The translations under genes and the position numbers were made by a program. A stretch of 64,000 nucleotides of DNA from Spizellomyces punctatus DAOM BR117. Its lineage: Eukaryota. Location of the stretch: assembly GCA_000182565.2 (NCBI GenBank), contig KQ257457.1; one strand, written 5' to 3'. Below the pieces are notes generated by a model that was given only the letters and a program-made list of their open reading frames with translations, was not told the DNA's origin and did not search any database. Position 1 is the first letter of the stretch. Each line of letters begins with the position of its first letter. Of the stretch, positions 4,603 to 23,331 are shown piece by piece.

Positions 4603-4659
4603 TATTTCCTTTATGTAGAGCTGATAAAATAATATCTCCTCTCTTCTATAAAAATCAAT

Positions 4660-5126: not shown

Positions 5127-6491
5127 TCAAACCACGGTAACAACAGCACCAATGGAAAGTGTAACATTCTCGAAATAACACGTCACCATGCGCACCTTTT
5201 GCGTAGGTGCCGTTGCATGAGTTGTATGCACACGAAGCAAACCATCGCTGCCAGTAAATGAGAGTGCCGCATTACTGCCTTCATCCTTTGATGCAAATGA
5301 CCAGCCAAATGAGAATGCCTTGGAATCATAGTCGGCGAACGACATGTCCATATCTCCTAATTGGTCAAAGTTGTTATTTGACAATTGTGTGACAAGCAGT
5401 GTTTGATTATCACTCGGTGAATGTGTGAAGCCTTGTATTCCACTTGGAATGGTCAAGTTCGGGCCGATTTGCATACGCCACTCGCGTAGTCCCTGGGACG
5501 AATACATTAACGCTTTATCTTTTGTGGTATCATTCAAAACGTCGTCATCGATAAAGGACATCTCCACACCCTGGAGAGAGCGAACGCCAGACATATGGAG
5601 CAAGAAGGTGTTCCGGTTTCCGCCACTACATGCATTTTCCGTTTGGGTTGAGCGCACATAGTCATAGAATATTGATTTACCGTCCGAAATAGCACGAGTC
5701 GCGTTGACAACGGTCGTCGGAGGAGGAGTGATATAAGGGACCAAACACCGAATGTTGGAAACCCGAATCTCACCTACACCGGCGCTTGTAAACACTGTGT
5801 TCGGGTCTGCGAGGGTGATAATGATTTCTAACGCCTGATTTGGAAGGGCCCACACAGGGAAGAACTGGTCATTCGATGGATGGCAAAAACCGACGAACGG
5901 GTGGTGATTAATGGAAATGGTACTTGATGTTGCAAAGATGTTGGTGTTTCCATATCCGGAAAGTTGGCTCAACAATTTCTTACTACCGGTGGATAGATTG
6001 CGGTACGTTTGTACTAGATAAAGAGGATAGTTTGGAATGTTAACAACAGTTTCTCCCCCTGCTTTGATGGTTAATGATTGAATAATGGATTCTAAGCCAA
6101 GGTACGTATTTTTAACACCTGTACCAGGAGTTATCAGGTTCCCTGCATTATCGTATGCAGAGACATCCATGGAGAGAATGAGTTTTTGCAGAATGAAACT
6201 CACCGAATTAGAGTCACAAGTTATCTTGATTGGGGTCAGGTTACGACTTTTTGTCGTATATGTGCTTTGACCAATCGGACTATAGATTGACACGCCTTCC
6301 CACGGGGGTCTGAGTACCCCCTCGNNNNNNNNNNNNNNNNNNNNNNNNNNNNNNNNNNNNNNNNNNNNNNNNNNNNNNNNNNNNNNNNNNNNNNNNNNNN
6401 NNNNNNNNNNNNNNNNNNNNNNNNNNNNNNNNNNNNNNNNNNNNNNNNNNNNNNTGTCATTGGCATATGAATTGTAATCAAATTCAACCAT
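5127..6491 (-). CDS. Major capsid protein (double jelly-roll, PLV type), element A; contains N gap
   Basis: ~450 aa and beta-rich, with a GLESIIQSLTIKAGGETVVNIPNY segment typical of PLV MCP N-lobes. Lies next to the minor capsid and ATPase and aligns weakly to 23332-24459. Confidence 0.75.
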   Translation of the reverse strand: MVEFDYNSYANDXXXXXXXXXXXXXXXXXXXXXXXXXXXXXXXXXXXXXXXXXXXXEGVLRPPWEGVSIYSPIGQSTYTTKSRNLTPIKITCDSNSVSFILQKLILSMDVSAYDNAGNLITPGTGVKNTYLGLESIIQSLTIKAGGETVVNIPNYPLYLVQTYRNLSTGSKKLLSQLSGYGNTNIFATSSTISINHHPFVGFCHPSNDQFFPVWALPNQALEIIITLADPNTVFTSAGVGEIRVSNIRCLVPYITPPPTTVVNATRAISDGKSIFYDYVRSTQTENACSGGNRNTFLLHMSGVRSLQGVEMSFIDDDVLNDTTKDKALMYSSQGLREWRMQIGPNLTIPSGIQGFTHSPSDNQTLLVTQLSNNNFDQLGDMDMSFADYDSKAFSFGWSFASKDEGSNAALSFTGSDGLLRVHTTHATAPTQKVRMVTCYFENVTLSIGAVVTVV

Positions 6492-6978
6492 ACACCCTGA
6501 CCATTCGTCCTGTAGAGTCTTTAATGGTTGAAAGGTGCAGGCGCTTTGACTTCGTCCCAGCGCTCCCCCTTTGGGGGGTCGCTGTCCTTCGAACCGCGCG
6601 GCTCACTGTAGCGGGTTGCTTCTTCTTCGGTGCATTTGAGGCCTTTGCTCTCTTCATGGCTCGCTCCTCTTTCTCTTTCCTTTTTCTTTCCTTCTCTTGC
6701 TCAAGAACGCGTTTCGCTTCATCGAGTTTCATCTGCTTCTCCTGCTCTTCCCTTTCCTGTTCACGTTTGGCCTGCATCTCACGTAACTGTGCGGCTCGGG
6801 CCTTTTGGGCCTTCTCTAATGCGGCCCTTTGCTTATCTGTCATTGGACGCTTTACTTTCTGCATAGGAGGTTGTTCTGGTTTCTTTTCTGCTTGTTGAAC
6901 AGGGACTTGTTCTGTGGGTTTTTCTACATTCTCTTGTGGAGCGGCGCTCGATTCTTGATTTGGATCTAATTCTTCCAT
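6484..6978 (-). CDS. Charged coiled-coil/basic viral protein
   Basis: KRPMTDKQRAALEKAQKARAAQLRE resembles KRTASEKQQAHLEKSRENALQVRRE in 27706-28500. Confidence 0.65.
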   Translation of the reverse strand: MEELDPNQESSAAPQENVEKPTEQVPVQQAEKKPEQPPMQKVKRPMTDKQRAALEKAQKARAAQLREMQAKREQEREEQEKQMKLDEAKRVLEQEKERKRKEKEERAMKRAKASNAPKKKQPATVSRAVRRTATPQRGSAGTKSKRLHLSTIKDSTGRMVRVYG

Positions 6979-7015
6979 TTGTTTCTTCCTTACACAGAAA
7001 AAAAAAATCATAAGA

Positions 7016-7735
7016 TTAGACATCCGCTACATCATCTGAAAATGCAAAACGAACCGTTAAGGGACTATTCAATGCAACTTCCAAACCGGTCATCGAGTCA
7101 ATCAGATAGAATTCGATTTTAGATATGGTATCATCTACGGGAAGCCATTCTCCCCCATCATTGGTCCAGGTCACTACATCACCGAAACTATCAGGGACAA
7201 CTGCAGCAACTACAGATTGCGCAGAATCATTGAAGTCACTGAGGTAGCGGCTTCCCTTTACTTGAATGTTACTCGTGAGTAGAACTGGATATGAACCCGA
7301 GAGGTTAACTGGGTTCTTCAATGTTACCATTTGGTAATATCCAGTCTCGGTCCAGCGAGACTGCCCGGTCAAAATGTAGGCCGTAGTTCCACGTGTGGCT
7401 GGCAGGATTTTGAACTTCTTAGGCCCTGTTGCTGCTATGGAAATCTTCCTGCTCACTCCATCATAACTAACAGTATAACTCTGTGTTCCGGCGGCGCTCA
7501 TAGCGTCTGCTACTGCTAATGGGAAGTTTGCAATACTGTAGTTTCCGGGCGCGATGGTTGCATTATAAATCGTACTATCGCCTTCTTCTACAAATGCTAT
7601 AACATTATTTGCACTAGATACCAAGTCCCAATCCTGAAGGAAACTCACGGAGAGCACCTTCATCATCTCCATCCTCCTAGGAGGAATGGAAAATGACCTC
7701 GACTTCAGACTGCAATATGTAATCTCGTTAATCAT
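7016..7735 (-). CDS. Minor capsid (penton-like single jelly-roll) protein, element A
   Basis: 239 aa with TIAPGNYS, YTVSYD and NPVNLSG motifs; homologous to 25213-25956 (IPPGTYS, YTVEYN, NPIDLTG). Confidence 0.75.
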   Translation of the reverse strand: MINEITYCSLKSRSFSIPPRRMEMMKVLSVSFLQDWDLVSSANNVIAFVEEGDSTIYNATIAPGNYSIANFPLAVADAMSAAGTQSYTVSYDGVSRKISIAATGPKKFKILPATRGTTAYILTGQSRWTETGYYQMVTLKNPVNLSGSYPVLLTSNIQVKGSRYLSDFNDSAQSVVAAVVPDSFGDVVTWTNDGGEWLPVDDTISKIEFYLIDSMTGLEVALNSPLTVRFAFSDDVADV

Positions 7736-7776
7736 GATATTTCCTTACCTTTTATGTAAAGACAAAGGAAATTTAA

Positions 7777-8490
7777 ATGTCCTATAAACCACGCCCAATC
7801 TTTCCAGCGGGTAAGAAGAAGAAAGACAATCGCATCCCAGTTGACCTCGCTTCACCGCCTCTATGTACTACGTTGGTTGCCCCAAGGAAAAGTGGTAAGT
7901 CAGCATTAGTTTGTGGTCTGATAGAGGATGTGTATGCAAAGTGTCATGACAAAGTCATTCTGATGAGCGACACCGTTGAGTATGATGCTTCGGTGAAAAC
8001 GTTGGCTAAAACAACAAAACATGATAACATCTATTCCACAGATGAGGTATCGAATGCCTCTATAGCAAAGATTGTGGAAGAACAAAAAAAAGCACACAAG
8101 GATGAAGGTAAGTCATTATTATTGTTCATCAATGATGCCGGAGACTCGGCTAGGAGTGCCGACTTAAATCGAGAGTTATCTAAATTGTACACAAAATGCC
8201 GGCACTTTGGGATTTCCTTGTGTGTGGCTATACAAAGTGTCACTTCACAGATATCCAGAAAAATGAAGAACTGTACAACAGAATGGATTGTCTTTAAGAA
8301 CAATGCAGAGGATATGAAACTACTCGCAAAGATGTTAACGTCGGCCTACAAAGAAGAAAAAGAGGTATTGAAATATCTCACTGAATGCACCACACAACCG
8401 TATTCATTTTGTTATGTTAACATGGCAGCAAACAATGCTAAGGACATGTATCGTTATTCCGATTCAGAAGGGTTCAAGGATTATTTTTAG
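7777..8490 (+). CDS. A32/FtsK-HerA family genome packaging ATPase, element A
   Basis: Walker A APRKSGKS, Walker B LLLFINDAG (IDD expected), arginine-finger motif KCRHFGIS followed by a Q sensor. Confidence 0.88.
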   Translation: MSYKPRPIFPAGKKKKDNRIPVDLASPPLCTTLVAPRKSGKSALVCGLIEDVYAKCHDKVILMSDTVEYDASVKTLAKTTKHDNIYSTDEVSNASIAKIVEEQKKAHKDEGKSLLLFINDAGDSARSADLNRELSKLYTKCRHFGISLCVAIQSVTSQISRKMKNCTTEWIVFKNNAEDMKLLAKMLTSAYKEEKEVLKYLTECTTQPYSFCYVNMAANNAKDMYRYSDSEGFKDYF

Positions 8491-8504
8491 CCATGCGAAG
8501 CCGA

Positions 8505-9236
8505 TTACAATGCACACATGATATAGCCCAAATCCTTGAACACATTGATGAAGTCATCACCTAAAGGATAGCTGCGGTCTGAATCATAATAAATAACCAT
8601 TCGACCAAATGGGTCTTGATGTTGTTTCTTTGTAGATGCCGATGCCGGCATTGGCGCTCCGCGCCGGCATGGTTTCGTTTCCCATTGAACTCGTTTCGCC
8701 AGAAAACAAACCATTCCTTCTGTTAACAATCTTTTGGCCCATTTCCGATCCGGTGTACAGGGGGTAATAGCTAAGATTTGCTTCACATTGCCTCTATCAA
8801 TTTCCGAAAAAGCCTTTTCGAAAAACTGTTCGAGGAGGCGGTGCGGACCCTTAATACCGGCTTCCTCTGGGCACATCGCGGAACCGGGCGGGTTCAGGAA
8901 AACTGTTTCTCCTTTCCACTCATTCATCAAAAGGGCGTTGATAAATGTACCATCCTTTTGGTAACCAAAGGTTTTCCTTGCTCGAATGTGGCTTTGCTCA
9001 TTTGAGCACGGGTCTAAGTCAAATATCGGGATGAATGAATGAACAACCTCTGCTAGACTACTGGGGGTGTTATAGACATTATTCACTCCAAGTCTAATGA
9101 ATTTGTTTTGTTCTTTCGCTTTGCGGGACATATTTGGATTTCTGGTTAGCTTGTAGGATTTCTCCATGGAATGTTTTTTATGCAAAAATCCATTCTCATC
9201 TTTTTGACCATGATATGTCAATATCGGCATACACAT
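8505..9236 (-). CDS. Phage Dam-like DNA N6-adenine methyltransferase
   Basis: YNTP...FDLDPCS...W.GETVFLNPPG motifs in the order seen in the phage Dam family; NPPG instead of NPPY/F. Confidence 0.72.
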   Translation of the reverse strand: MCMPILTYHGQKDENGFLHKKHSMEKSYKLTRNPNMSRKAKEQNKFIRLGVNNVYNTPSSLAEVVHSFIPIFDLDPCSNEQSHIRARKTFGYQKDGTFINALLMNEWKGETVFLNPPGSAMCPEEAGIKGPHRLLEQFFEKAFSEIDRGNVKQILAITPCTPDRKWAKRLLTEGMVCFLAKRVQWETKPCRRGAPMPASASTKKQHQDPFGRMVIYYDSDRSYPLGDDFINVFKDLGYIMCAL

Positions 9237-9423
9237 AGATCATCCGTACGTTGAAGCTTTCACTAGAAAGGAAAAAGCCACAGATCTATTAATAGACCTC
9301 TTTCCCAATCCGGAAAAGTGTGGCTATCATGTCTGGGACATGTTAGCTCCATGGAATAACATAAAAGAAGTCAACGAGCCTCTTCCCCTCCCCCCTCATC
9401 TCATTCACACACAATTCTCCACC

Positions 9424-10764
9424 ATGGTCTCCGCTCGTCCTTCAACTAGTAGTCATCATCAATTACCAGCAGATTACCTGGATGCGATTAATTCAGCGGT
9501 AGAAAGCGATACCAAGAAAGACTATATGCATGCTTTAAAAAAGCTTGTGAAATATTGGGAAGAGAATTGGGAAGAATATTGGCCTAGCAGCGATGACGGG
9601 TCTACGGAAAACATTACGAAGTTCTTCAAGACAATTGGGGATAAATACATCGTCCCGCAAAACCAACGAAACCCAGAAAAACCATCAAAGCGCGGTGATG
9701 ATCCAAAAACTGCAAATAAAAAGTTTACAGTTGACGAACTTGTGGAATTGTTGAAAAATGCAAATGAAGTTAAACGCCCTCTGTGCGGTAGTTCTTATAA
9801 TACGAACTCGGCCCTTAACAAGTTCATTTCAAGATTTACGAGTGGAAAGGTTGAAGAAGATAAGATCAAAGAATTCGATATGAGATTGACGAATACCAGC
9901 CAGCGTTTTGTGGAAATGAGCTTAAAATTACGGTGTGAGTATGGCAAGACATTACCAGCTCGAAGTGAGAATGGAAATCAACAGAGCGAATATGGGACGT
10001 ATTGCAGAAAATTAGCCACTCTGTATGAGGCGTTTGGGGAACTTATCGTCTCTGTGAAAAAATTACATAAACAAACGAGGCTATTTCGAACAGATTATCG
10101 TGTACTGGACAAAGTCATTGGACGAAAAGAGGAAATCCTTCAACATCGGGACAACAACGGTTCCTCTGAGGAACATCATGACAACAACGGTTCCCCTGAG
10201 GAACATCAGGACAACAACGGTCCCTCCGAGGATGTCCCTCAACATGACAACAACGGTCCCTCTGAGGATCGGGACAACAACGGTCCCTCTGAGGATCGGG
10301 ACAACAACGGTTCCTCTGAGGTGGATGTCCCTCAACATGACAACAACGGTTCCTCTGAGGATGTCCCTCAACATGACAACAACGGATCCTCTGAGGAACA
10401 TCAGGACAACAACGGTTCCTCTGAGGATGTCCCTCAACATGACAACAACGGATCCTCCGAGGAGGGTACAAACCGGAAGGCTCCTCAACAGCCGTCCACG
10501 GGTACAAAGCGGAAGGCTCCCCTCAAAAGGCAAGATAAACCTAGCAAAAAATCTTCCACGTATAAAATACCTTTCGGCCGTGTACTCGAATGCAACCTCT
10601 GTAAGGAGGGCTTCAGCACTCATGGAAGGTTTCAAACACACATGTTAAAGAAGCATAGTGTGGCTACCTGTGACACCGATTTCCCTACCTATGAAAAAGA
10701 GGACAGTATCACGATGGAAATGGTTGCCTATGAAAATGGAGATCTTATCGAGACGGCGCTGTAA
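9424..10764 (+). CDS. Viral protein with acidic tandem repeats, NLS and C2H2 zinc finger (candidate regulator)
   Basis: Long ORF with 10x DNNG(S/P)SE repeats, RKAP/KRKAP, and CNLC-x12-HMLKKH. Confidence 0.7.
   Translation: MVSARPSTSSHHQLPADYLDAINSAVESDTKKDYMHALKKLVKYWEENWEEYWPSSDDGSTENITKFFKTIGDKYIVPQNQRNPEKPSKRGDDPKTANKKFTVDELVELLKNANEVKRPLCGSSYNTNSALNKFISRFTSGKVEEDKIKEFDMRLTNTSQRFVEMSLKLRCEYGKTLPARSENGNQQSEYGTYCRKLATLYEAFGELIVSVKKLHKQTRLFRTDYRVLDKVIGRKEEILQHRDNNGSSEEHHDNNGSPEEHQDNNGPSEDVPQHDNNGPSEDRDNNGPSEDRDNNGSSEVDVPQHDNNGSSEDVPQHDNNGSSEEHQDNNGSSEDVPQHDNNGSSEEGTNRKAPQQPSTGTKRKAPLKRQDKPSKKSSTYKIPFGRVLECNLCKEGFSTHGRFQTHMLKKHSVATCDTDFPTYEKEDSITMEMVAYENGDLIETAL
10141..10462 (+). repeat. In-frame coding minisatellite, 10 copies of GACAACAACGG core
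   Basis: Unit lengths 27/30/36/39 bp, all multiples of 3. Confidence 0.95.
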
Positions 10765-10776
10765 GGCGCTTCACCA

Positions 10777-11028
10777 TCAATCATCATCACTGTTATATAC
10801 GACAGTCTTTCTCTTTTTGAATGATTTTTTGTATTTCTCTTTGAGTTCATCAACGGATATTAGTTTCTGGAGATAACTCTTAGCATCTTTGCTGAATGCT
10901 TCCACTTGCAGCACATCATTCACAAAGTCTCTTTTCTGGTCCAACGACCCTATCTTTTCATAGGTTTCCACTAGCATGCTTGTTAACCCGTCCTCCGATG
11001 TTTCCTCTGGAAAGTACACTTTGCGCAT
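10777..11028 (-). CDS. Small hypothetical viral protein
   Basis: 83-aa ORF. ETYEKIGSLDQKRDFV resembles ETYHQMQDKSERESFV in the neighbouring ORF, so the two may be paralogs. Confidence 0.5.
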   Translation of the reverse strand: MRKVYFPEETSEDGLTSMLVETYEKIGSLDQKRDFVNDVLQVEAFSKDAKSYLQKLISVDELKEKYKKSFKKRKTVVYNSDDD

Positions 11029-11074
11029 TTACCTTTTGACATGAAAAAAACAAATGTTTCATCCGCAGTTCTAT

Positions 11075-11431
11075 TCAACACACAACAACCTCAATATCCA
11101 TAGAACTAGATAGACTCTTAGTACAATGAAGGATTAAGTCTAATTGTTCGACAACAAATGATTCCCTTTCACTCTTATCCTGCATTTGATGATATGTTTC
11201 TATAGTGGTAGATAGTAAGAGAATCATACCAGGCCAACTAGTTTCAAAATGTGTAGGATATTCGAAAATATGTTGAGCCGCCCATGAAATTGGCAGAAGT
11301 GCAGCCGTGAGACGTTCTTCATCATTATCCGCAGCGCCCGCAACTATTCCATCTATCGCTCGGTGAATCACCTGGGAATAAAAAACACATCGGAATTGCT
11401 TTGCATTTTCAGGTTCTTGGTCAGACGACAT
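11075..11431 (-). CDS. Small hypothetical viral protein
   Basis: 118-aa ATG ORF tightly packed between neighbours. Confidence 0.5.
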   Translation of the reverse strand: MSSDQEPENAKQFRCVFYSQVIHRAIDGIVAGAADNDEERLTAALLPISWAAQHIFEYPTHFETSWPGMILLLSTTIETYHQMQDKSERESFVVEQLDLILHCTKSLSSSMDIEVVVC

Positions 11432-11600
11432 TATACAATACTGTCAAAATGTGAAGGTTAAGATACTTTATATAATAATGACTCTTTACATCATTGTTCT
11501 ACATCATGTAGCTAATTTGATGTAGTAGTTGATGTGTGTCCATTCTTATAAAAAGCTAGTATTTGCTTCCAGAGCTTCTGCATTCAAACACAATCGAAAC

Positions 11601-11942
11601 ATGTCTTTCCCAGTTACTCCAAAGCGTGAACACTTTGCTAATTGCATCATGCTCTTCAAGACGGACACGTTGATGGCAATGGATAAGCGAGGAAGGTGCA
11701 TCCATATCAACACTTCCAACTTTCCTGAAGTTCGCCATATTATGAATGATGAAGATTTGTTTCGCATCTTTGTTCATAACAAAACCAAAAGGAGCGCGGG
11801 GGAAAAGAATCGGATTTGCCCTGTTTGTTCATGCAACTATGATATTCCTGACCTACTCAAAACAGCAACGGAAAAGGAGATGGCTCTCTCCGGTGTTTGT
11901 AGTGATGCCTGCTGGGATACAGCGACGAAATTCGATGACTAA
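11601..11942 (+). CDS. Small Cys-rich (putative Zn-binding) protein
   Basis: CPVC...E..LSGVCSDAC. Confidence 0.5.
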   Translation: MSFPVTPKREHFANCIMLFKTDTLMAMDKRGRCIHINTSNFPEVRHIMNDEDLFRIFVHNKTKRSAGEKNRICPVCSCNYDIPDLLKTATEKEMALSGVCSDACWDTATKFDD

Positions 11943-11961
11943 GATAGAAGTGAATGTGAGC

Positions 11962-12341
11962 CGGGGGCGTGGGGGGCATGTGGGGGGCATGTGGGGGGCC
12001 TGTTTTTTTTTACTCGATGTATGAAGAGAGCTATGAAAAAAGAGAGAATATATGGAGTAGATATATGTAGTATAATTCATTGTTTTTTAGGGGGGGCTTG
12101 GGGGGCCTGTTTTTTCGAAAGTAGATTGTTTGGAATGAAAAAAGCAGAGTAAAAAACAACAAACACGTTATTCCTATTTTTACTTTAGTAGAACATCTCT
12201 GTAGACCCCAAATGTCCAAAAAACAGGCCCCCCAGGCCCCCCTTTTTATCACTCGATAAGTTGACTCGACGGGGGTTAGCTGCTAAATCATATATGGAGA
12301 GGCATGGAGTAAAAAAACAGGCCCCCCAAACAGGCCCCCCC
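11962..12341. repeat. Nested inverted repeats of GGGGGGCCTGTTTTTT with G-tract cluster
   Basis: Forward copies at ~11993 and ~12099; reverse copies at ~12218, ~12310 and ~12328. Confidence 0.85.
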
Positions 12342-12751
12342 TAATTTTAGTATATGCGGAATCGAGTCACCATTCACTTTCATTTACACCGTCTGACTCC
12401 ACACTTATGAAGGACAGCGCTCCCTTCGGAGCGCGCTGAGCGCAGGCTCAAGCGAGGACGCGTAGTGTGGCCATTGAATGTTCCTTTACTTTCGCCGTAG
12501 GCGACCTCGGAAACCAAAGCTGTATTTAAAGAATTACGATCAAGATTGGCTAACTGAAGCTGAGTCATGATCGGGGGACTAACATGTCTGGGACATGGCA
12601 AATCACATGAATTGCTTTGCAAAGTGAATCTATCGATAGTTGATTACCATATTAGGAAGGTGCATCACGTGAGTCGTACGCGTAGTAATCTGCTGATGTA
12701 AAGTGGGAAAAGCAACTATCAATAGCAAGTCCAAGTTTTTGCATAAAGTCG

Positions 12752-13240
12752 ATGGTTCAATGTCCCTCCCCTGCCCACCAAAACAATTACGATTACGAGC
12801 GATTCACACGGCATCGATTAACCATGGACAGCGCTCCTTCGAGCGCGCTGAGTCGCCTTGCGGCTCAGAAATTGATAAGGAGAGCTAGTGGAGAGGAGCT
12901 GTTTGACATTAAGAGATTCTACCAACTAACGGTTGACAACGAGAAGTACCAAAAGATAGTAACAGGGAATCGACGGAGTAAGGAGGCGATTGAAAGGAAG
13001 ATGGTGGACTTAGGTATCCGGTCAATCATTGGTGAAGATGGCTCGAATATGTATGTGGCATCGCTAGTAGAGGAGAAGTTGGGGGCGCTTACAAACGATA
13101 TCAAGAAGGAGCTAATGAATGCCGGATACACGGAAGACCAGGTGACACAGATTTCCGCCATCTATCGCATGCAACGGAATGTATTGAGACTGAAGGTGTC
13201 GTGTGTATCAGTAACTGAAGGAGGATTCGAAAGCACATGA
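12752..13240 (+). CDS. Hypothetical protein, last gene of element A
   Basis: 162-aa ORF (alternative start 12824). Confidence 0.55.
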   Translation: MVQCPSPAHQNNYDYERFTRHRLTMDSAPSSALSRLAAQKLIRRASGEELFDIKRFYQLTVDNEKYQKIVTGNRRSKEAIERKMVDLGIRSIIGEDGSNMYVASLVEEKLGALTNDIKKELMNAGYTEDQVTQISAIYRMQRNVLRLKVSCVSVTEGGFEST

Positions 13241-13384
13241 TGGGGCAATCATGGAAAAAATGCTGGCAAAGTATGAAGGGAAAAAACTATTCGAAATTGG
13301 TGTGTTCGAGATGGGGTCCGAGTGGTTAGAACCACGTTTGAGTTAAATTGACACGGCGTTTAAATATGGAGTGGGCGTTTAAAT

Positions 13385-13509
13385 ATAATAAGCCGGGCTG
13401 ATGTAATATATAATAAGCCGGGTATATAGAATAATAAGCCAGCTTATAATCATAAATAAGCCGGCTGATACAGTGCAGATAAGCCGTACGGCTTATCTGC
13501 ACTGTATCA
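13385..13509. repeat. Subterminal ATAAGCC(G) repeats ending in a perfect 44-bp palindrome (13466-13509)
   Basis: TGATACAGTGCAGATAAGCCGTACGGCTTATCTGCACTGTATCA equals its own reverse complement; four ATAAGCC copies lie upstream. Confidence 0.95.
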
Positions 13510-15078
13510 ACGTCCCTTGACATGACAACTTGGTTCATTTCAGGTACCCACAGTCTGTAGGCCTTACTCTGAGTGCTGTAGCCGACCATGACTGCCTTCT
13601 TGGCCTTCTCATCAAGTTTTGACCGCTTTTCCTTTGGAATATGAGTGTAGGCCATGCAGCCAAACACTCTGAGATGCTGGAGATCTGGTTTACCGCCTGT
13701 AAACTCTTGGAATGGTGTGGATTGGTTGCTGAGTGCTGCAGTGGGGCTCCTGTTCCTGAGATAGACCGCTGTCATGATTGCCTCGCCCCAGAACTTGTAG
13801 CTGAGTCCACTGTGGTGCAGCATGCACCTTCCCATTTCCACCAGCGTTCTGTTCATCCTCTCAGCAACACCATTCTGCTCTGGTGTGTAGGGGGTGCTGA
13901 ATTGCTGCTGAATTCCCTTCTGCTTGCAGAATTTCTTGAATTCTTCGCCCACATACTCTCCCCCATTGTCTGATCTGAGAGTTTTGATCTTCTGCCCCGT
14001 GAAGTTGGTTGCCCAGGCCTCAAACTCCTTGAATTTGCTGAGAACCTCACTCTTCTCCTTCAGAAGATAAACTGCCGTCATCCTTGACTTGTCATCAATG
14101 AATGTGACAAAGTACTTTGCCCCACCATGACTTGGTGTCTTCATGGGCCCACACACATCACTGTGAACCACCCCCAGCAGTAGAGCTGCTCTAGCTGCTT
14201 CTCCCTTTGGAAAGGGACGCCTGGTGATCTTTCCAATGGCACAGGCTTCACACGGTGATGTTTCTGCGTGATTCTTGACCTCCAGACCGCTTCCCAGCTG
14301 GTTCCTAGCCAAGATTTTGATGCTGTTGACGTTCAGGTGTCCTAACCTGCGATGCCAGAGGTCCAAACTCATTCCAGAGGCTATGTTTGCATGTTCTCTT
14401 GCATGAAACATGTATAGACCGCCACCTAGAGTTCCCTGGATTGCTTCCTGACCGTCTGAAGTCTTGATACAGCATCCCTTGCTGCCAAACTCAACTTTGG
14501 CACCATTTTCAGTGGCTCTTCTTACTGAAAACAAGTTCTTTTCAAGCTTGGGAACAAACCACACGTCTCTGAGGGTACAGAATCAGTTTCTGCCTGTCTC
14601 AAGTGTGATCTGGCCCTTCCCTATTGCCTGAACTGTTCTGTTGTCTGCCAGATGGACTTGAATTGGTGACATCTCTGTGTAATTGGTCATCCAATCCTTC
14701 CTGTGTGACATGTGCTGTGAGCCACCCGAGTCCACAATCCACCAGACTGCTCCCTGAGAGGTTTTGGTGTCCTTTCCTGACTGAGCAAAGAATAGGAACT
14801 CATTCTGAGTTGCCTGACTGGTGCTGGCTTGATTGGCTTGTTGTTTGGTGTCCGCCAGAAACTTCCTGCAGTCCTTCTTGAAGTGACCCTTCTTGTTGCA
14901 ATAGAAGCACTTCCCTGCTATCTTCTTGGTCCCACCATGCTTGCCAACCTTCTGCCCACCATCCCTGCTGAAAAAGGCCTTCCCTTTGCTATCTCCTTCA
15001 CCCCCAGCTTCCTTCCTGCGTGTTTCTTCATGCAAAAGCCGTGATGTGAGGAATTCCAGCGTCAGAGAATCACTCCTG
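13510..15078 (-). pseudogene. Ty1/Copia gag(C-term)-protease-integrase, truncated at SRDV
   Basis: Zn knuckle CFYCNKKGHFKKDC, protease WIVDSGGSQHM, LWHRRLGH..CEAC, and D-D-E motifs VHSDVCGP/RSDNGGEY/QNGVAER. In-frame TGA at 14583-14585. Confidence 0.95.
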
Positions 15079-15465
15079 ACTACAAAGTGAGGCACTTTGA
15101 GACAATTTCATCAAAAATATTCCCAGGGAAAAAGTGCCACAGGATAAAACCAATGGTAAAAATTGGAAGCTTATGGAAAGTAAAAAATTATGTAGAGACA
15201 TGTAGGGATGAGAATTGTCCCCATTTTCCTAGCAAGATTGCAAAAAGAATAGAAATATCCACATGTTTAAATGGCAACATTGGTTTCCTTGTTTACACAA
15301 AAATCCACAGAAGATGTAGGCAACTCAGGCGTCAGAACTCATCCCATCTCAACATTACCTTCGAGGCATACCAGCCGGGATTGGCCGCTCCACGCCCGGC
15401 ATGCCTGCTGGCATCCTCATGTCCGTTCTTCAAATGGACTACATCTGCGCCGGCATCTTCCACCG
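15079..15465 (+). repeat. Left terminal inverted repeat of element B
   Basis: Reverse complement of 36073-36459 with about 6 mismatches. Confidence 0.95.
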
Positions 15466-16539
15466 AGGAATTTCTATGTGTGAAAATGTACCCTTCGGAC
15501 GAACTTTTAACTTTTTCTGCTGTAATCTTGTTTTAGTAGGTCGTGTTTGTACAGGCTCCAACTGACAAATTTCTTTGCAAACTTCTTTTTGTGTTCTAGT
15601 CAATTTTACTGGTCGATGACCTGGTTTCTCGGTAATCGGTGCATTGGTTTTCTGTAATTCATAGTATTTGAAATGCTGGTCTATTTCTTTACCATTGGCG
15701 TATGCTACTACGAATTGATAGCCATCGACACTGACTATATGGTATACATCATCAGACCATTTTGCCTCATATCCTTTTTTGAAAATATCCCATTTGAGTA
15801 ATATTCTTACATGGTCGCCAATGTCAAACTTCTTGAAATCACTTACAGCCTTGCTATTATCGCGCACATAATCACCATCAGCAACATCGACAGGTGCCTT
15901 TTTCAATAGACTGTGATATGAAGTATTGTAGTTCATAACAAGGTCAGGAAGAGCATCTATGTAGCGCTTAGTTTTAAATATGGTCATGTATCTGGAGATA
16001 ACACTTTTCAGTGTGCGATTAAACCTTTCGACCAGACCCATATGGTTATGGTCAGCAACTTCAGCCATGTAATGGTTTATACCATACTTATTGAGCAATT
16101 GCTCAAAAACAATGTTGTTGTACTCTGAACCCCTATCAGTCGTGATATTTTTAGGACGCCGCCTAGCGAGTAACTTTGTAAAACAATCAGCAATATTTTC
16201 TCTGGTTTTATTCTTGAGAGGAAAAACAAAGGCATAACAAGAGTACACATCTACAATACATAACAGATAATGGTAACCATTGTTGTAGGTAGCATATTTC
16301 TGCATGTCGCACAAATCCGATTGCCATATGTGATCAACACCATTGGCTGTTATATGCATGTAGTTAGGCTTGACAAGAGGTTTGTGTACTTGTTGCACAT
16401 GCTGACTGTCGATGAATGTCTTTATATCCTTTCTGGAAATACCCTGATCCTTGAGTCTCTGGTAGAGCTTTTCTACGCTCTGAAGTCCAGTCTTGGGATC
16501 ATAGTAAACTTTCTTGATTAGTTCGGTTTTTGTCCCCAT
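15439..16539 (-). CDS. Polinton-type RVE (retroviral-like) integrase
   Basis: WQSDLCDM, CIVDVYS, TTDRGSEY, GLVERFNRTLK, YNTSYHS, FDIGDHVRI, FKKGYEAKWS. Confidence 0.93.
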   Translation of the reverse strand: MGTKTELIKKVYYDPKTGLQSVEKLYQRLKDQGISRKDIKTFIDSQHVQQVHKPLVKPNYMHITANGVDHIWQSDLCDMQKYATYNNGYHYLLCIVDVYSCYAFVFPLKNKTRENIADCFTKLLARRRPKNITTDRGSEYNNIVFEQLLNKYGINHYMAEVADHNHMGLVERFNRTLKSVISRYMTIFKTKRYIDALPDLVMNYNTSYHSLLKKAPVDVADGDYVRDNSKAVSDFKKFDIGDHVRILLKWDIFKKGYEAKWSDDVYHIVSVDGYQFVVAYANGKEIDQHFKYYELQKTNAPITEKPGHRPVKLTRTQKEVCKEICQLEPVQTRPTKTRLQQKKLKVRPKGTFSHIEIPRWKMPAQM

Positions 16540-16540
16540 T

Positions 16541-19500
16541 TTAAAAACCGAAAGGAAGTGTCTCTATGACCTTAGACTCAGAGTTAAATTCTTGAACCAC
16601 ACGTTTGTCGTAGACAAACTTGTACTTTTTGCTGGGTGAGTTATTTTTTTCTGGTATGATGATCTTTGTCTTGTTACGCACACTGTGTGTTTTACTAATG
16701 TTGATTTCGCTAAAGTTAAAATTAACACAACTCTCTTTCTCAATCCCTTCATCATCAATGTACCTAGGGTTAAATACTATATCCTTCATAGACTCATGTC
16801 CAAGATTGAGTCCATTTTCATATGAAAGTGCAAAGCCTTTACAGACCGTCTTTGCTCTACCCGTTTTGTTGAGAATGTAAGAGTAATTCTTAGCGCCACC
16901 TGAAACAAATTCTACAATATGGTCGCCTTTCAATTCATCTGTCAGGTCTCCAAGATAATTACCATAGGGCAAAGTCTTTTCAGTTGATCCTATATCATCA
17001 TCAACATATATAATAGAATCAGTATCATAGTACAACACCTTTTCCCCTACAGTATCCAGAACACTGTAAAGTTTACAACGAGCCAAAGCGGTAGTGTATG
17101 CAGCAATGAAAATACTAGTATTCTTGTCATCACGAACAGCAGNNNNNNNNNNNNNNNNNNNNNNNNNNNNNNNNNNNNNNNNNNNNNNNNNNNNNNNNNN
17201 NNNNNNNNNNNNNNNNNNNNNNNNNNNNNNNNNNNNNNNNNNNNNNNNNNNNNNNNNNNNNNNNNNNNNNNNNNNNNNNNNNNNTAGACAATTTTGGCTG
17301 GATCAAGACGAATACCTTGCTTGCTTTCATAGTCGTCAATATACTTTTTTCTGTCGTCATCATTTTTACACCATTTAGGGTACCCTGATGCTTCCTGCTT
17401 GATTTTGAGAAATGTGAAGATGTAATCTTTGAAAAGATCAGATCCCGTATTTTCGAAATGAAGAACCTCATAAACTTGAGAAATGACATAGCCCTTTGAA
17501 AGTGCTAACTTCACTTCCGGAATGCACCAAGTCCCAACAAAAGCCCTCTGTTCAACAGAGTGGCAACAAACAGAGATTCCTTTTTCAGCACAATCATTAC
17601 AAAGAACAAACATGGTCTTGTTGTTAATCTTAGCAGGAAGTACAGGGTGATATAACCCACGAGGGGGTCCTATTCGACACTTGATGAAACCATTGTAGTT
17701 CAGTTGGCCATCAAAGTTGTTAAGAATCCTTGTGGGGAACGAGTAGCAGGGGTACTCTCCAAAAGCGTTTACCCAAGGATACTGTGATGTAAAATCGCAG
17801 TATTTCACTCTTTCCTTCTCAGAACATTTGTAGTAAAGTTTGCTGGCATTTGTTCTACCGCCAAAAAATGCGTTACGAGGATCTAGAGGTCGGATATATT
17901 CAATGTCGAGGTCTTTACTCATAACATAATCACATATCTTCTTGTTTGAGTCATATTCACACTCTGAGATCGAGACATAATTGTAACCTAGAGCAATCAA
18001 TTCTTCATGCTTATTATCGGTATATCGTCTCAAAGACTTATAAGGGACACCACGATAATTAACGGCATCATTGTCTTTGCATTGTTTACACCCATGGAAT
18101 TCACAACCATTAAATTCATACACAGTATTTGTCGAAGGAGAATAGCCATCAGCATAGAATTTTTTCCCATTTAATCGGTCAATCCATTTCTCTCCACCAC
18201 ATAGAACATGTTGCATATCCGGAACGCCATTATCGCGTAGATATTCGAGCCACTGGACAGCCTTGTCTGAATGACGCCGCATTCCTTCTTCATGATGTGT
18301 GGGTATGCTTTCTTCAGGCATGAACATATGCCTGTAAGTCCCCATACATGCCGATGCTATGGTTTTATAAGCCCAAGGATCAATTTCACCATCAGTTGCT
18401 ACAAGGAATTGCTCTCGGAACAATTTCACGGCCGCTGCTAGAATATCGACATCATTCTTGCAGTATTCAACAAGTTCCTTAGTGTAATCAAAAACATACC
18501 TACCCTTCATGCATTCGCGTAGGGTTTTCTTGTACCAGCGTCGTGCATCAGCGCGTTTATCATAGGGCATACTGTCGAATCGGAAATCATCCAAAGACAG
18601 TAAAACGCCTTTATAATCATTTGAACATTTGAACCAATGTGGAAAGTAACCCTTACAAACATGTTCCTCTAATCCAAACATGGAAGGCAACTTTGACAGT
18701 CCCATAGGCAAAATGACATGCTATCAATGAACCGGATGTTGAACTTGGGCAGCANNNNNNNNNNNNNNNNNNNNNNNNNNNNNNNNNNNNNNNNNNNNNN
18801 NNNNNNNNNNNNNNNNNNNNNNNNNNNNNNNNNNNNNNNNNNNNNNNNNNNNNNNNNNNNNNNNNNNNNNNNNNNNNNNNNNNNNNNNNNNNNNNNNNNN
18901 NNNNNNNNNNNNNNNNNNNNNNNNNNNNNNNNNNNNNNNNNNNNNNNNNNNNNNNNNNNNNNNNNNNNNNNNNNNNNNNNNNNNNNNNNNNNNNNNNNNN
19001 NNNNNNNNNNNNNNNNNNNNNNNNNNNNNNNNNNNNNNNNNNNNNNNNNNNNNNNNNNNNNNNNNNNNNNNNNNNNNNNNNNNNNNNNNNNNNNNNNNNN
19101 NNNNNNNNNNNNNNNNNNNNNNNNNNNNNNNNNNNNNNNNNNNNNNNNNNNNNNNNNNNNNNNNNNNNNNNNNNNNNNNNNNNNNNNNNNNNNNNNNNNN
19201 NNNNNNNNNNNNNNNNNNNNNNNNNNNNNNNNNNNNNNNNNNNNNNNNNNNNNNNNNNNNNNNNNNNNNNNNNNNNNNNNNNNNNNNNNNNNNNNNNNNN
19301 NNNNNNNNNNNNNNNNNNNNNNNNNNNNNNNNNNNNNNNNNNNNNNNNNNNNNNNNNNNNNNNNNNNNNNNNNNNNNNNNNNNNNNNNNNNNNNNNNNNN
19401 NNNNNNNNNNNNNNNNNNNNNNAAATGATCCCCTTTACGTAGGATAGTAGCAGGTTTCTCATCGTATCGCTCGTTGTTAACACCTTTGACCATAAGAGGC

Positions 19501-20570
19501 TTACCACCGTTCTCTAGATCAACAATAACGATGTTCCTTTTGAGGAATGAAACCAACTTTGGAAAATCGCCGTAAGACATCTTCTGACCAACAGGTAACC
19601 CGCATCCTTCATAATAGTTAGTAACAATTTTGTCCAGTGGCTTTCTTTGTTTCATGATGTACGCATATTCATTTGTTGAGTGATCCATTGTATGGAATGC
19701 TACGGATAAGGCAACTGCTCTCATACCACAATCGTTACCATTGTTTTTCACAACAATGACACAACTTTTTGACTGTGCTGATAGATGGTCATGATAGTTT
19801 TTGAAAGTGCCGCCCTTTACCGAAACTAAATGATGCACCTCAATAGTCATGCTTTCATCGATTGATGCTATTTCAGCCGATTGCATTCTCGCAGTAATTT
19901 CGTCTATCACTTCAGAAGCAATCAGATCACTAACTGATACAACTTTTGATGACCAAAATCCATTGTGTAGACTTTGATGTTGAAACCCTATTTGCACTTT
20001 GTCACCGTGTTCAAGGCCTACAAGTGATTCCTTGATGACATCATTGAAAAATGAAACAATATCATCATGAGTAGCAAAGGTGTACTTTGGATTGAACCGA
20101 TAAAGTTCCTTTGTATAACCGATACCTTTGATTTTGATCTCTTTGACAGATATTAAAGGTGAGAATGATTCTTGATGCTTTCGAAGATTATACTTACATT
20201 TAGCCCTAGTGGCAGCAGCCTTCTTAGCGGCTTCCTTTCGCTTTTTAATAGCAGCCTGAGCCCTCTCTTGAATTTCTCTCATCTCGCGCTCTTCCGCTTC
20301 TTTATTAAGCCTTCTCGTCTCTCTGGCCTTTTCAGCAATAGCCTGCTTTTGAGCCTCAGTGCATCTCGCAGCAGCAATTCTTTTTTCTCACTCAGATTGT
20401 AGGAATCTTGGTACTCGATGTATTTGAAGGTTCTCTAGTGCTTCTCGTCATTTCTTAGTCCAGTTCTTACATGAGAAGTTTCCAGAGACGATCTTCCGCA
20501 TCATCTTCTCGAAAGGCTTCGAGTCTTCTTTTACGTTTCTGTTCGCGATTGGGTCAAAAATCAAAGACAT
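16541..20570 (-). pseudogene. Protein-primed family B DNA polymerase with N-terminal TP and vOTU-like domains and an internal Vsr-like insertion
   Basis: Motifs RFIDS, KGYFPH, YCKNDVDIL, AFFGGRT, DFTSQYP, IAAYTTALAR, YYDTDS, GAKNYSY. Disrupted by TGA stops at 20448 and 20388 and a 1-bp frameshift near 18712; spans two N gaps. Confidence 0.93.
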
Positions 20571-20644
20571 AGTAAATAGAAATATATAGTGTTAAAAAAT
20601 AAATATTTTCAAAGCTTTAAATGTATTTGTTCTTTGAATGATGT

Positions 20645-20959
20645 TCATGCGAAGTGAGCAACTTTTACTGGATCATCAGGAATAGCCACTTTTCGATTTA
20701 TTTTAAAGTATCTCATCTTAGGAGGAGGTGGTGGTGGTTTTTGTATACATGGTAACTTTTCTATAGCATACATCTTTGAAATAGGTGATTCTGCTAACCC
20801 ATGTATTATATTATGAATGTATGAGCGTGAGACACCTAACCTGTTAGCAATCTCTATGGCTGCCTGATAGTCATTTACAAATGTTCTAGAACCATCTTCT
20901 TCGATCTTGTATACCCTGTAGCGATCCTTCGTGTTTATCGATCCTGATTTGCATCCCAT
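20645..20959 (-). CDS. Small HTH (NUMOD1-like) DNA-binding protein
   Basis: YQAAIEIANRLGVSRSYIHNII helix-turn-helix pattern. Confidence 0.55.
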   Translation of the reverse strand: MGCKSGSINTKDRYRVYKIEEDGSRTFVNDYQAAIEIANRLGVSRSYIHNIIHGLAESPISKMYAIEKLPCIQKPPPPPPKMRYFKINRKVAIPDDPVKVAHFA

Positions 20960-21216
20960 GTTAAAATATATTGTGTATACAAAATATTATTTCTCTTTGT
21001 TTAAACGTGTGTGTTTATTAGCAAACATTGTACAAAAGCTCTATAACAACACCCCTACATGACGCTAAACAAAGGGATATCTATGTACATTGTGCTACGA
21101 AACACCTTTACAGACTGTTTTTGTTGTTTTGTATTTTTTTTCTGGTTTTGTTGTTTTGTACTTTTTTTGTTGATTTCATGGATTTTTTAGCGTGTGTCAA
21201 TGGTAATTGAAGAGAA

Positions 21217-21858
21217 TCAAGCAGCGGCGCTACTGCTTCCTACATCTGGAGGATTGATAACATCAGCATGGACAATGTCCTGATCGCTCACTTTAGCCTT
21301 GACGCTCTTTCTGGGCTTAGGGGTGCTAGCTGCTATGAGTGTGTTAATCTGCATCTGTTGCCACTCGATACACTCCATGAGCATTTGCTCTAAATTAGAG
21401 GATTCCCGATTACGCTCAGGCTCAGGAAAGCCTGCCGGGATGCCTGCTGGCATGCCTTCCGGCATATGGCTCTGCGCCGGGATATGGGTCTGCACCGGGC
21501 TTGACCGCTCCGTGCCTGGCATACTCTCTTTCTCGACACGTCTGCATTTAGCCTTTTGTGGACTGTAATCGCTGTCATCGGCATCATCGGAATCGTCAGC
21601 ATCAGATGAAGAACCAGAACTCAAGGTTTCACCATCGGACTCTTCGAACTCTTCAAACTTCCTCTTTAACTTGAGAGATGAAGATTTCCGTTGAGTCTCT
21701 TCTCGCTTCTTCCGCTTTAGGAGTCGTCCCAGATGTTTTCTAAGTGATCTTATCAACTTCTTGTCATCCTTATATATCTTCTGATTATCAGCCATATTTT
21801 CTAATAAACACTCGCTTTGCTTGAAGGTGAGATCCTCTAGACCCATCCTGAGGAGCAT
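21217..21858 (-). CDS. Hypothetical viral protein (basic then acidic tracts)
   Basis: 213-aa ORF containing a GC module copy (PAQSHMPEGMPAGIPAG). Confidence 0.6.
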   Translation of the reverse strand: MLLRMGLEDLTFKQSECLLENMADNQKIYKDDKKLIRSLRKHLGRLLKRKKREETQRKSSSLKLKRKFEEFEESDGETLSSGSSSDADDSDDADDSDYSPQKAKCRRVEKESMPGTERSSPVQTHIPAQSHMPEGMPAGIPAGFPEPERNRESSNLEQMLMECIEWQQMQINTLIAASTPKPRKSVKAKVSDQDIVHADVINPPDVGSSSAAA

Positions 21859-21928
21859 GACGCGCTATGGGATGTAGCAAGCCTCCTACAAAGTGCGTCA
21901 CTTGCCCCCATTGACTCTTTGCAATGGA

Positions 21929-22080
21929 CATGTTTCAAATTCGGTTAGGTGTTTCAGAAAATGTAGCTATGTTTTCGGATTTTGGTTAGATGTTTCAGAA
22001 TTATGGCGCATGTTTCAGAACACCTATCTGATGTTTCAGATTCGGTTAAATGTTTCGAATCATACCTGATGTTTCAAACC
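21929..22080 (+). repeat. Array of 8 TGTTTCAGA-like cores at 19-21 bp spacing
   Basis: Cores start at 21931, 21950, 21970, 21991, 22011, 22032, 22051, 22070. Confidence 0.85.
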
Positions 22081-22242
22081 CGTACTCGTGCCCAATGGGA
22101 AAAAAGATACACCGAGTGCCTTTTTATGCCACCGGCTTGTACTCAGGGATGCCCTTCCGTTCAATGGAAAGAATCTTGGCATCCCTGCCGGGATAGGCCG
22201 CTCCGCGCCCGGCATAGTCTTGGCATTTCTTGGCACCATTTT

Positions 22243-22416
22243 TTAAACATAAACAACATGCCTCATGACTCTTCCAGAACCGTAGCATCGCTTACGTGTT
22301 GCTGCGGCTTTTCTAGCAGCGATGATGTGCCTGTTTCTTGCACGAGCAGCCGCTTTAAGCCCTTTATTAGGCATAGCCGATACGTTGATGAGTTTTCTAT
22401 GGGATTTCTTAGCCAT
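22243..22416 (-). CDS. Very basic 57-aa protein, candidate DNA-condensing core protein
   Basis: MAKKSHRKLINVSAMPNKGLKAAARARNRHIIAARKAAATRKRC..., no acidic residues, downstream of MCP. Confidence 0.55.
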   Translation of the reverse strand: MAKKSHRKLINVSAMPNKGLKAAARARNRHIIAARKAAATRKRCYGSGRVMRHVVYV

Positions 22417-23181
22417 AATGTGATTCAATATTAGGTTGAANNNNNNNNNNNNNNNNNNNNNNNNNNNNNNNNNNNNNNNNNNNNNNNNNNNNNNNNNNNN
22501 NNNNNNNNNNNNNNNNNNNNNNNNNNNNNNNNNNNNNNNNNNNNNNNNNNNNNNNNNNNNNNNNNNNNNNNNNNNNNNNNNNNNNNNNNNNNNNNNNNNN
22601 NNNNNNNNNNNNNNNNNNNNNNNNNNNNNNNNNNNNNNNNNNNNNNNNNNNNNNNNNNNNNNNNNNNNNNNNNNNNNNNNNNNNNNNNNNNNNNNNNNNN
22701 NNNNNNNNNNNNNNNNNNNNNNNNNNNNNNNNNNNNNNNNNNNNNNNNNNNNNNNNNNNNNNNNNNNNNNNNNNNNNNNNNNNNNNNNNNNNNNNNNNNN
22801 NNNNNNNNNNNNNNNNNNNNNNNNNNNNNNNNNNNNNNNNNNNNNNNNNNNNNNNNNNNNNNNNNNNNNNNNNNNNNNNNNNNNNNNNNNNNNNNNNNNN
22901 NNNNNNNNNNNNNNNNNNNNNNNNNNNNNNNNNNNNNNNNNNNNNNNNNNNNNNNNNNNNNNNNNNNNNNNNNNNNNNNNNNNNNNNNNNNNNNNNNNNN
23001 NNNNNNNNNNNNNNNNNNNNNNNNNNNNNNNNNNNNNNNNNNNNNNNNNNNNNNNNNNNNNNNNNNNNNNNNNNNNNNNNNNNNNNNNNNNNNNNNNNNN
23101 NNNNNNNNNNNNNNNNNNNNNNNNNNNNNNNNNNNNNNNNNNNNNNNNNNNNNNNNNNNNNNNNNNNNNNNNNNNNNNNNN

Positions 23182-23331
23182 TACGCTGAAATCTAATGCG
23201 CCAATTGCCATTCTCCGAACCGGTTTTTTCGGTCGCGGTAACCCAATCGGTGGAGTTGGTCACGCGATTCGTGCTTCCCGCGTCCGATTTGGGCTTACTC
23301 GCGATCTCTCGAAGACGTCCTCGTCGTTACA
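23182..23331 (-). mobile_element. LTR fragment inserted into element B MCP (remainder in N gap)
   Basis: Near-identical reverse complement of 36941-37090, ending exactly at the TGTAA terminus. Confidence 0.85.

Follow-up and report, generated by a model that had tools for sequence, protein, structure and literature searches.

A perfect 44-bp palindrome with a phased half-site array at the junction of a Polinton-like element and a Copia retrotransposon in Spizellomyces punctatus

The locus described here raises a simple question: why does a long, perfect palindrome stand at the very place where a virus-like element meets a retrotransposon? We analysed 64,000 nucleotides of contig KQ257457.1 (assembly GCA_000182565.2) from the chytrid fungus Spizellomyces punctatus DAOM BR117, a stretch referred to below as the window. 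At its left lies an insertion, element A, followed by a truncated Copia retrotransposon and then by a second insertion, element B. The original prediction, made from the letters of the sequence, had described a perfect 44-bp palindrome that forms the junction of A with the truncated Copia integrase, four ATAAGCC repeats that precede it and recur inside it, and a Copia integrase that stops after S-R-D-V. All of these descriptions held up. For the origin of the palindrome three alternatives had been offered: (i) a replicated hairpin telomere, or a tyrosine-recombinase or protelomerase site, of A; (ii) a Tc1-like end, meaning that A moves by an IS630/Tc1 transposase; and (iii) an independent mini-transposon of 36 bp. 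On our best reading, the palindrome belongs to the terminal module of A itself (approximately 13355-13509) and is not a separate insertion. The fuller claim, that it is an intrinsic terminal palindrome of A accompanied by an array of end-binding motifs, has in our judgement about an even chance of being right. The features involved are listed here.

1..13509, strand not assigned: element A, an integrated Polinton-like / MELD-type virus by gene content; right end at 13509, left part beyond the window.
13355..13386, plus strand: GGCGTTTAAATAT, two copies 19 bp apart, inside the terminal module and just interior to the array.
13388..13496, plus strand: ATAAGCC half-site array, with direct copies at 13388, 13413, 13434, 13456 and 13479, then an inverted one at 13490-13496.
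13466..13509, strand not assigned: perfect palindrome of 44 bp, the outermost sequence of element A, starting with TG and ending with CA.
13510..15078, minus strand: Copia fragment between A and B, with CCHC motif, protease barrel and integrase up to S-R-D-V (Pfam).

The two arms of the palindrome (13466-13487 and 13488-13509) are 22 nt each, 100% complementary and separated by a spacer of 0 nt, with CGTACG at the centre and the axis at 13487|13488. When up to three mismatches were allowed, the window still held a single copy. A script ranked it first in length among the zero-spacer perfect palindromes of the window, the next two having arms of 9 and 8, and the longest arm found in 200 block shuffles was 11 as against the 22 observed. 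As single-stranded DNA, the 44-mer is predicted to form a hairpin with a 20-bp stem at -22.1 kcal/mol (z -11.9), and 0 of 200 shuffles folded as stably. The mirror symmetry halts exactly at the host junction, with C at 13465 and A at 13510.

The sequence next to the palindrome is not arbitrary with respect to it. On both strands of the window ATAAGCC occurs 13 times (6.64 expected), and six of the 13 matches fall within the 109 bp from 13388 to 13496. Four of these copies lie upstream of the palindrome and two within it, one direct (13479) and one inverted (13490). The start-to-start spacing of the direct copies is 25, 21, 22 and 23 bp, that is, about two helical turns. The inner core of the palindrome reads ATAAGCC-GTAC-GGCTTAT, so that two half-sites face each other across GTAC. 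In units 1, 3 and 4 of the array, too, ATAAGCC precedes an imperfect inverted partner, GGCTGAT or AGCTTAT; the inverted arrangement of half-sites thus marks the end as a whole, beyond its tip. Further inwards, the number of repeats at 13355-13386 differs among other genomic copies: in a contig from an older sequencing run (X9), 13380 leads by way of 12 additional letters back to 13348, amounting to an extra repeat unit, and in run X16 the match of 13 reads breaks off with a loose end before 13348. A diverged copy elsewhere in the genome, at least one, realigns from 13348 rightwards, whereas the adjoining interior gives no alignment. The terminal module thus appears to be better conserved than its surroundings, which points to a functional module.

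To what base does A extend? We mapped raw reads of 38-51 nt from three chromatin immunoprecipitation sequencing (ChIP-seq) runs of 2026, X16 and X17 among them, on positions 12500-14500, together with the X9 material, which consists of Logan contigs of one older run carrying the same species label. On the minus strand Copia reads S-R-D-V at 13509-13520 and is then cut. Reads from other Copia copies (82 in X16, 89 in X17, and one X9 contig) match from 13510 rightwards and differ leftwards, and their consensus continues in the Copia frame with I-F-D-E-N after S-R-D-V. Since the intact copies diverge left of 13510, Copia homology ends exactly there. The original prediction had placed the join within 1-3 bp; the junction itself is right, and the gap is 0 bp, without filler bases, at 13509|13510. 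Because the palindrome ends at 13509 and Copia starts at 13510, the palindrome is the extremity of A.

The same reads bear on whether the palindrome could be a dispersed repeat or an artefact. In X16 the depth in the palindrome bin (13438-13504) was 30, as compared with 31 and 42 in the two bins leftwards, while Copia was about 20 times deeper than A (approximately 850 vs approximately 40, both orientations summed), which identifies Copia as a multi-copy family. ChIP depth is uneven and a poor measure of copy number, and 12500-14500 includes no single-copy host gene; with read depth equal to that of A, unlike that of a dispersed repeat, the palindrome appears to be single or low copy. Genome-wide dispersal, judged by these 38-51-nt reads, is excluded.

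A second possibility is a fold-back, produced either by chromosomal repair at this single locus or by the assembly of a gap-rich draft. The assembly is fragile, as suggested by five N runs and an odd inverted 150-nt Copia piece beside one of them, and reads of 38-51 nt are too short to bridge a 44-bp palindrome with long anchors on both sides. Nevertheless, the independent reads of 2026 cover the site at even depth, with no skip of 22 bp, and no indel, joint or loose end was found at the axis or behind 13509 among the 16 of 63 loose-end rows listed. The arm content matches the repeat array of A, and fold-back repair usually leaves a spacer. An assembly fold-back is accordingly not supported by reads of this length, and we hold a fold-back of either origin to be decidedly unlikely.

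Two of the alternatives involve Tc1-type transposition. The letters TA|CAGTGC...GCACTG|TA, to which the original prediction had drawn attention, are present as described, with TA at 13468-69 and 13505-06, and Tc1 ends start with CAGTG. The letters thus fit a TA-flanked unit with CAGTG ends, an independent 36-bp mini-transposon that landed in a TA at the tip of A and is unrelated to the biology of A; its excision would leave TGATATCA, which contains TA. However, two ATAAGCC copies of A, the fifth and sixth of the array, lie inside this unit at the spacing of the array. There is no second copy in the window, and the palindrome core had 0 matches in IMG/VR and 0 in Joint Genome Institute (JGI) metagenome contigs. 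The read depth of the unit equals that of A, unlike the roughly 20-fold deeper Copia, and only by chance would an independent unit have hit A at its very last bases. This alternative was disfavoured, and we regard it as highly unlikely.

If instead the whole of A had been moved by a Tc1/IS630-type transposase, with the palindrome arm as terminal repeat and a duplication of TA, the letters TACAGTG / CACTGTA would be all that speaks for it. In the other copies, whose reads show the intact Copia target, the site lacks TA, the insertion having taken place at G^A, and TATCA, five non-Copia bases, separates CACTG from the first Copia base. The Pfam scans covered 17 open reading frames (ORFs) of 1-20282, 24 ORFs of the window, 9 ORFs at E values up to 5, and 18 stop-to-stop frames out of 41 of at least 45 aa overlapping 9200-13520; none of these ORFs or frames gave a Tc1, mariner or IS630 domain. 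This route for A is refuted by the target sequence and has, in our view, next to no credibility. A Helitron end was considered as well and rejected. Helitrons insert between A and T and end in a 3' hairpin with CTRR about 10 nt beyond it; here the palindrome runs to the junction, there is no CTRR, and the target is G^A.

What kind of element ends in this way? The visible genes of A give the following picture.

1..2994, minus strand: fibre-type gene, open at the window edge, fusing homologues of two separate B genes.
5127..6491, minus strand: major capsid protein with a double jelly roll (DJR), its N-terminal part broken by the N run 6325-6454.
7777..8490, plus strand: FtsK/HerA (A32-like) packaging ATPase, 24% identical (E 2e-12) to the Pox_A32-family ATPase of B.
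8505..9236, minus strand: DNA methyltransferase-like gene (phrog_111, E 1.8e-15; Pfam Dam at E 0.0016, below the cut-off).
9340..10764, plus strand: orphan 474-aa protein in the right arm of A, with repeats plus one C-terminal C2H2 zinc finger.

The capsid protein shares 69% identity with 'hexon [Powellomyces chytrid fungus MELD virus 5]', and this virus is the closest named relative of A. An AlphaFold2 (AF2) model built from 13 sequences reached a predicted local distance difference test (pLDDT) score of 73.7, and the top Foldseek matches of this model were the capsid proteins of Paramecium bursaria chlorella virus 1 (PBCV-1), Singapore grouper iridovirus (SGIV), Sputnik, mavirus and PRD1 (E 1e-13 to 1e-9); a search of the capsid profile against PDB sequences gave no match. 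The ATPase matched phrog_2666, a terminase, at E 1e-8, with weak CedD/HerA matches. The fibre gene matches B in two stretches: its residues 152-676 share 85% identity with B 29024-30598, and for its residues 702-998 the figure is 81%, against the start of B 30671-34303; outside this gene, A and B are barely alignable. We conclude that A is a Polinton-like / MELD-type virus of a lineage other than that of B.

Equally relevant is what these genes do not include. In the ORFs and frames scanned by Pfam, the visible 13.5 kb of A gave no polymerase, integrase (rve), tyrosine recombinase (YR) or DDE/Tc1 transposase domain, and the visible ORFs yielded neither a resolvase or protelomerase nor an HUH nickase or poxvirus-type primase. 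DNA_pol_B_2, the domain found in B at E 2.9e-25, was absent from the visible ORFs of A.

The reading of the palindrome as an intrinsic end of A draws on these observations together. Two of the six clustered ATAAGCC copies lie in the palindrome, at the 21-25-bp spacing of the array. A is viral, as judged by the DJR capsid fold, the packaging ATPase and the 69% hexon match. No protein-primed DNA polymerase B (pPolB), rve, YR or DDE gene is seen in the visible part of A, whereas B shows rve and pPolB plainly. The hairpin potential is strong (-22.1 kcal/mol, equalled by none of the shuffles), and in the diverged copy the terminal module appears better preserved than the DNA beside it. From this we infer an intrinsic palindrome at each end of A, its folding into a hairpin in vivo, and the binding of protein to the motifs. 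In such a scheme, the ATAAGCC half-sites, about two helical turns apart, would dock an end-binding protein of A, either an integrase or a replication initiator. On the free linear genome the self-complementary tip would snap back into a hairpin of 20-22 bp, which could prime or complete the replication of the ends of A. An integrase, encoded beyond the window or supplied in trans, would then join the palindrome tip to the Copia target. The usual tip of retroviral-type DDE integrase substrates is 5'-TG...CA-3', and the palindrome has this form; the tips of B, however, read AC...GT, unlike those of A, and the argument from TG...CA for an integrase substrate is therefore weak.

Several points weigh against this reading. 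The right end of A alone lies within the window, so that any terminal inverted repeat (TIR), palindrome at the other end or target-site duplication (TSD) falls beyond it, and the evidence amounts to one end of one copy. The visible 13.5 kb showed no replicase or integrase of A, and 'non-pPolB' describes the visible part only. An identical copy at the left end should approximately double the terminal depth, and the X16 depth over the terminal 130 bp (about 30) was not above that of the A interior (34-63), ChIP depth being unreliable. The reads of 38-51 nt have no anchors on both sides of the palindrome. That the symmetry stops at the host junction is predicted equally by an intrinsic palindrome and by a hairpin opened off its centre. 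Finally, the preprint that provides the precedent (bioRxiv 10.64898/2026.07.28.741278) also allows, in the part of its text available to us, for accidental annealing at DNA breaks.

The opened hairpin deserves separate treatment. Poxviruses, chloroviruses and phage N15 have covalently closed hairpin ends, and perfect palindromes arise upon the replication of hairpin ends. According to this explanation, the genome of A carried a closed hairpin with its apex at 13487|13488, or formed head-to-head junctions; a nick 22 nt from the apex, or a break of the junction 22 bp past the axis, opened it, and the opened end was captured by end-joining. The right arm would then be a copy made at integration, outside the unit genome. 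A perfect palindrome with zero spacer is what the replication or unfolding of a closed hairpin is expected to yield, the symmetry breaks off precisely where the host begins, no integrase is seen in visible A, and the terminal depth is not doubled. On the other side, the scanned ORFs gave no protelomerase, resolvase or YR domain, and the core ATAAGCC-GTAC-GGCTTAT resembles the imperfect inverted pairs upstream, as a built-in dimer site would. Moreover, the terminal palindromes published for Polinton-like viruses (PLVs) and virophages adjoin TSDs, according to the accessible part of the preprint, which points to junctions made by an integrase (bioRxiv 10.64898/2026.07.28.741278). We consider the opened hairpin rather unlikely. 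Its boldest form, in which A is a fungal capsid-encoding PLV with hairpin telomeres in the style of parvoviruses or poxviruses, copied by fold-back priming, with an end-resolving protein acting on ATAAGCC iterons and with entry via the hairpin end instead of a Polinton-type integrase, is likewise doubtful. If hairpin telomeres should prove true, the mode of replication and integration would be one without a demonstrated example so far in this virus group.

Could a tyrosine recombinase cross over within the palindrome, or a protelomerase act on it, with the enzyme encoded in A beyond the window? Its size and perfect symmetry do resemble the targets of telomere resolvases. Some Powellomyces MELD viruses encode a tyrosine recombinase, as stated in the legend of Fig. 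6 of PMC8502044. However, the scans gave no Phage_integrase or DUF3435 match. A weak lead came from the Atlas, which suggested the 474-aa ORF as a Crypton-like recombinase (DUF3435, score 0.83, below the bar); it was rejected, Pfam finding just a weak C2H2 in this protein. A crossover within the site should leave a hybrid half-site, but the 22-nt arms are both complete, without Copia sequence in either. A replicated telomere site, for its part, should have viral DNA on both sides, and the right flank here is Copia. We judge this explanation highly improbable. Of alternative (i), then, the hairpin-forming terminal structure of A survives as the best reading, and the tyrosine recombinase or protelomerase found no support.

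Element B, which lies in the same Copia copy, offers a comparison from within the window.

15079..36459, strand not assigned: element B, a classical Polinton, with rve at 15439-16539, pPolB at 17047-20282 and A32 ATPase at 24518-25204.

A and B are alike in having a DJR capsid, an A32-type ATPase, a shared fibre gene and the same Copia copy as target. B possesses rve and pPolB, and it ends in TIRs of 388 nt (98%) flanked by a 6-bp TSD, CTCCTG, at 15073-78 and 36460-65; visible A is without these genes and ends in the palindrome and its array. The claim that the end of A is built unlike the terminus of B was thus borne out. A script found no perfect palindrome with arms of at least 8 at the tips of B. 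At 15084-15098, five bases from the end, the tip of the B TIR does contain AAAGTG, 3 nt and CACTTT, a small hairpin-capable motif that is much weaker than the palindrome of A and may be due to chance.

Beyond the window, self-complementary termini with nearby repeat arrays are shared by A with the hairpin telomeres of poxviruses, chloroviruses, African swine fever virus (ASFV) and parvoviruses and with the protelomerase sites of phage N15. Parvoviral ends, for example, consist of a hairpin plus short tandem Rep-binding repeats. The difference is that the structure of A is seen as an integrated junction alone, with no resolvase or protelomerase in the visible part. In Mu and Tn7, several transposase-binding sites lie about 22 bp apart within each end. 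These ends resemble that of A in having several sites, in the spacing of about 22 bp and in the tips 5'-TG...CA-3'; they are not terminal palindromes, however, and A has no visible transposase.

The closest precedent is recent. A preprint of July 2026 reports that endogenous virophages and PLVs of Halocafeteria without pPolB carry terminal palindromes at the extremities of their TIRs, proposes that these form hairpins that prime replication, and describes them as going with 'particular RVE integrases' and adjoining TSDs (bioRxiv 10.64898/2026.07.28.741278). As far as the accessible text goes, the likeness extends to an integrated small virus with a DJR capsid, a palindrome at the extremity beside host DNA, and a similar size, 52 nt as compared with the 44 bp of A; pPolB, which the Halocafeteria elements lack, was not seen in the visible part of A. 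The same text also brings out differences: the host is a stramenopile, whereas that of A is a chytrid fungus; the Halocafeteria elements have RVE integrases, whereas visible A, with one end alone in the window, has no rve; and in A a phased array of six ATAAGCC half-sites ends in the palindrome, a feature that goes unmentioned in that part of the account. The original prediction had reasoned that the palindrome would give A an integration mode different from that of RVE-integrase Polintons such as B. This conclusion cannot be drawn, given that the published terminal palindromes accompany 'particular RVE integrases'. In the literature we found no other description of terminal palindromes in virophages or Polintons and no link between a protelomerase and a Polinton.

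Among the chytrid MELD viruses, Powellomyces MELD virus 5 and its relatives share with A the capsid (69% identity), fibre genes and a host of the order Spizellomycetales (PMC8502044, as far as seen). According to the accessible sections, non-PolB replicases and tyrosine recombinases are encoded by some genomes of the chytrid MELD set (Starrett et al. 2021, PMC8502044), and those sections make no mention of hairpins or terminal palindromes. One published PLV of S. punctatus, NW_015971538, listed with 'TIR 154 bp (pPolB)' (Bellas and Sommaruga 2021, PMC7805220), was considered as a possible counterpart of A and rejected, being a pPolB element. Inverted repeats of 30 nt have been reported in S. 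punctatus in connection with Fanzor (Saito et al., PMC10432273); as the part of that paper at hand gives no sequence for them, no link to the palindrome was established.

A looks like a further case, now in a fungus, of the newly described kind of terminal palindrome, the new detail being the phased half-site array. It is an open question how the ends are copied in PLVs and virophages that lack a protein-primed polymerase; palindromes have been newly proposed as the answer, from one protist genome. If our reading is true, the chytrid case would add a second, unrelated host lineage and make hairpin-forming ends a candidate for a general alternative 'end module'. The construction of the palindrome from a repeated half-site would, going by the motifs, point to a specific end-binding protein. 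S. punctatus can be cultured, and since expression of a transgene in it has been reported in the portion of PMC10432273 that was available, snap-back and binding assays look feasible.

Turning to the remaining observations on A, capsid genes of the A type occur at least three times in S. punctatus; the homologues SPPG_02195 and SPPG_08707 are 92% and 93% identical, and the best matches reach 92-100% identity. Further genes of this type are found in Spizellomyces 'palustris', Powellomyces hirtus, Phlyctochytrium arcticum and two Gaertneriomyces species, and several of the homologues sit on contigs of just 14-25 kb. This distribution of homologues suggests a virus lineage of the A type that may be spread over Spizellomycetales. 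No relatives' loci of the 499-aa protein, the capsid or the ATPase of A were found in IMG/VR; searches with the 13-sequence capsid alignment returned none in IMG/VR or the JGI metagenomes, and a tblastn search of a phage collection was also negative.

The right arm of A, from 9.3 to 13.3 kb, holds orphan genes, and an ORF of 162 aa is found beside the end. The 474-aa protein contains about ten tandem repeats of the type D-N-N-G-S/P-S-E, and with its zinc finger it is a possible, putative DNA binder. Searches with phmmer against 1.84 billion representatives and with a word-index protein search returned its self-match alone, and a single-sequence AF2 model of residues 30-260 had a pLDDT of 42.8 and was unusable. 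The Atlas model of a 499-aa ORF of A had a pLDDT of 0.37 and no usable match; going by this model, the protein looks disordered. In non-coding DNA of A (11960-12345), six or seven G followed by CCTG or CTTG and 6-9 T make up a motif that occurs approximately six times in both orientations, forming several inverted repeats of 13-28 nt. It may be a putative bidirectional transcription signal of the virus.

The host sequence around A and B also allowed a reconstruction, for which one more feature is needed.

36466..37076, minus strand: Copia gag resuming beyond B (Retrotran_gag_2, E 1.7e-35).

The minus-strand Copia ORF at 13326-14564 contains gag_pre-integrs, rve and SH3_retrovirus domains. By coordinate arithmetic, taking out B and a single TSD copy leaves the gag in frame with the Copia sequence from 15072 downwards. 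The window holds one minus-strand Copia that has been split by two insertions, A and B. The integrase of B is closest to that of Powellomyces MELD virus 1 (60% identity), and with it as query no other S. punctatus protein appeared among the best 120 of 128 matches.

The five N runs of the window (130-741 bases; 6325-6454, 17143-17284, 18755-19422, 22441-23181 and 33847-34279) break the A capsid gene, the B polymerase, the B interior and the B fibre gene, and they explain the apparent low-GC windows. Directly after the run 22441-23181, inside B, positions 23183-23332 are a 99% inverted copy of 36940-37089 (150 nt), which is the start of the Copia gag region beyond B. This piece is either part of a second Copia in the gap inside B or a scaffold misjoin.

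Copia copies differ from one another mostly by C>T and G>A changes (23 and 23 of 66 variable places in X16), which hints at deamination-type mutation of repeats. The two different capsid-encoding elements, A and B, lie 1.6 kb apart in the same Copia copy, and this arrangement hints at a targeting of repeats or heterochromatin.

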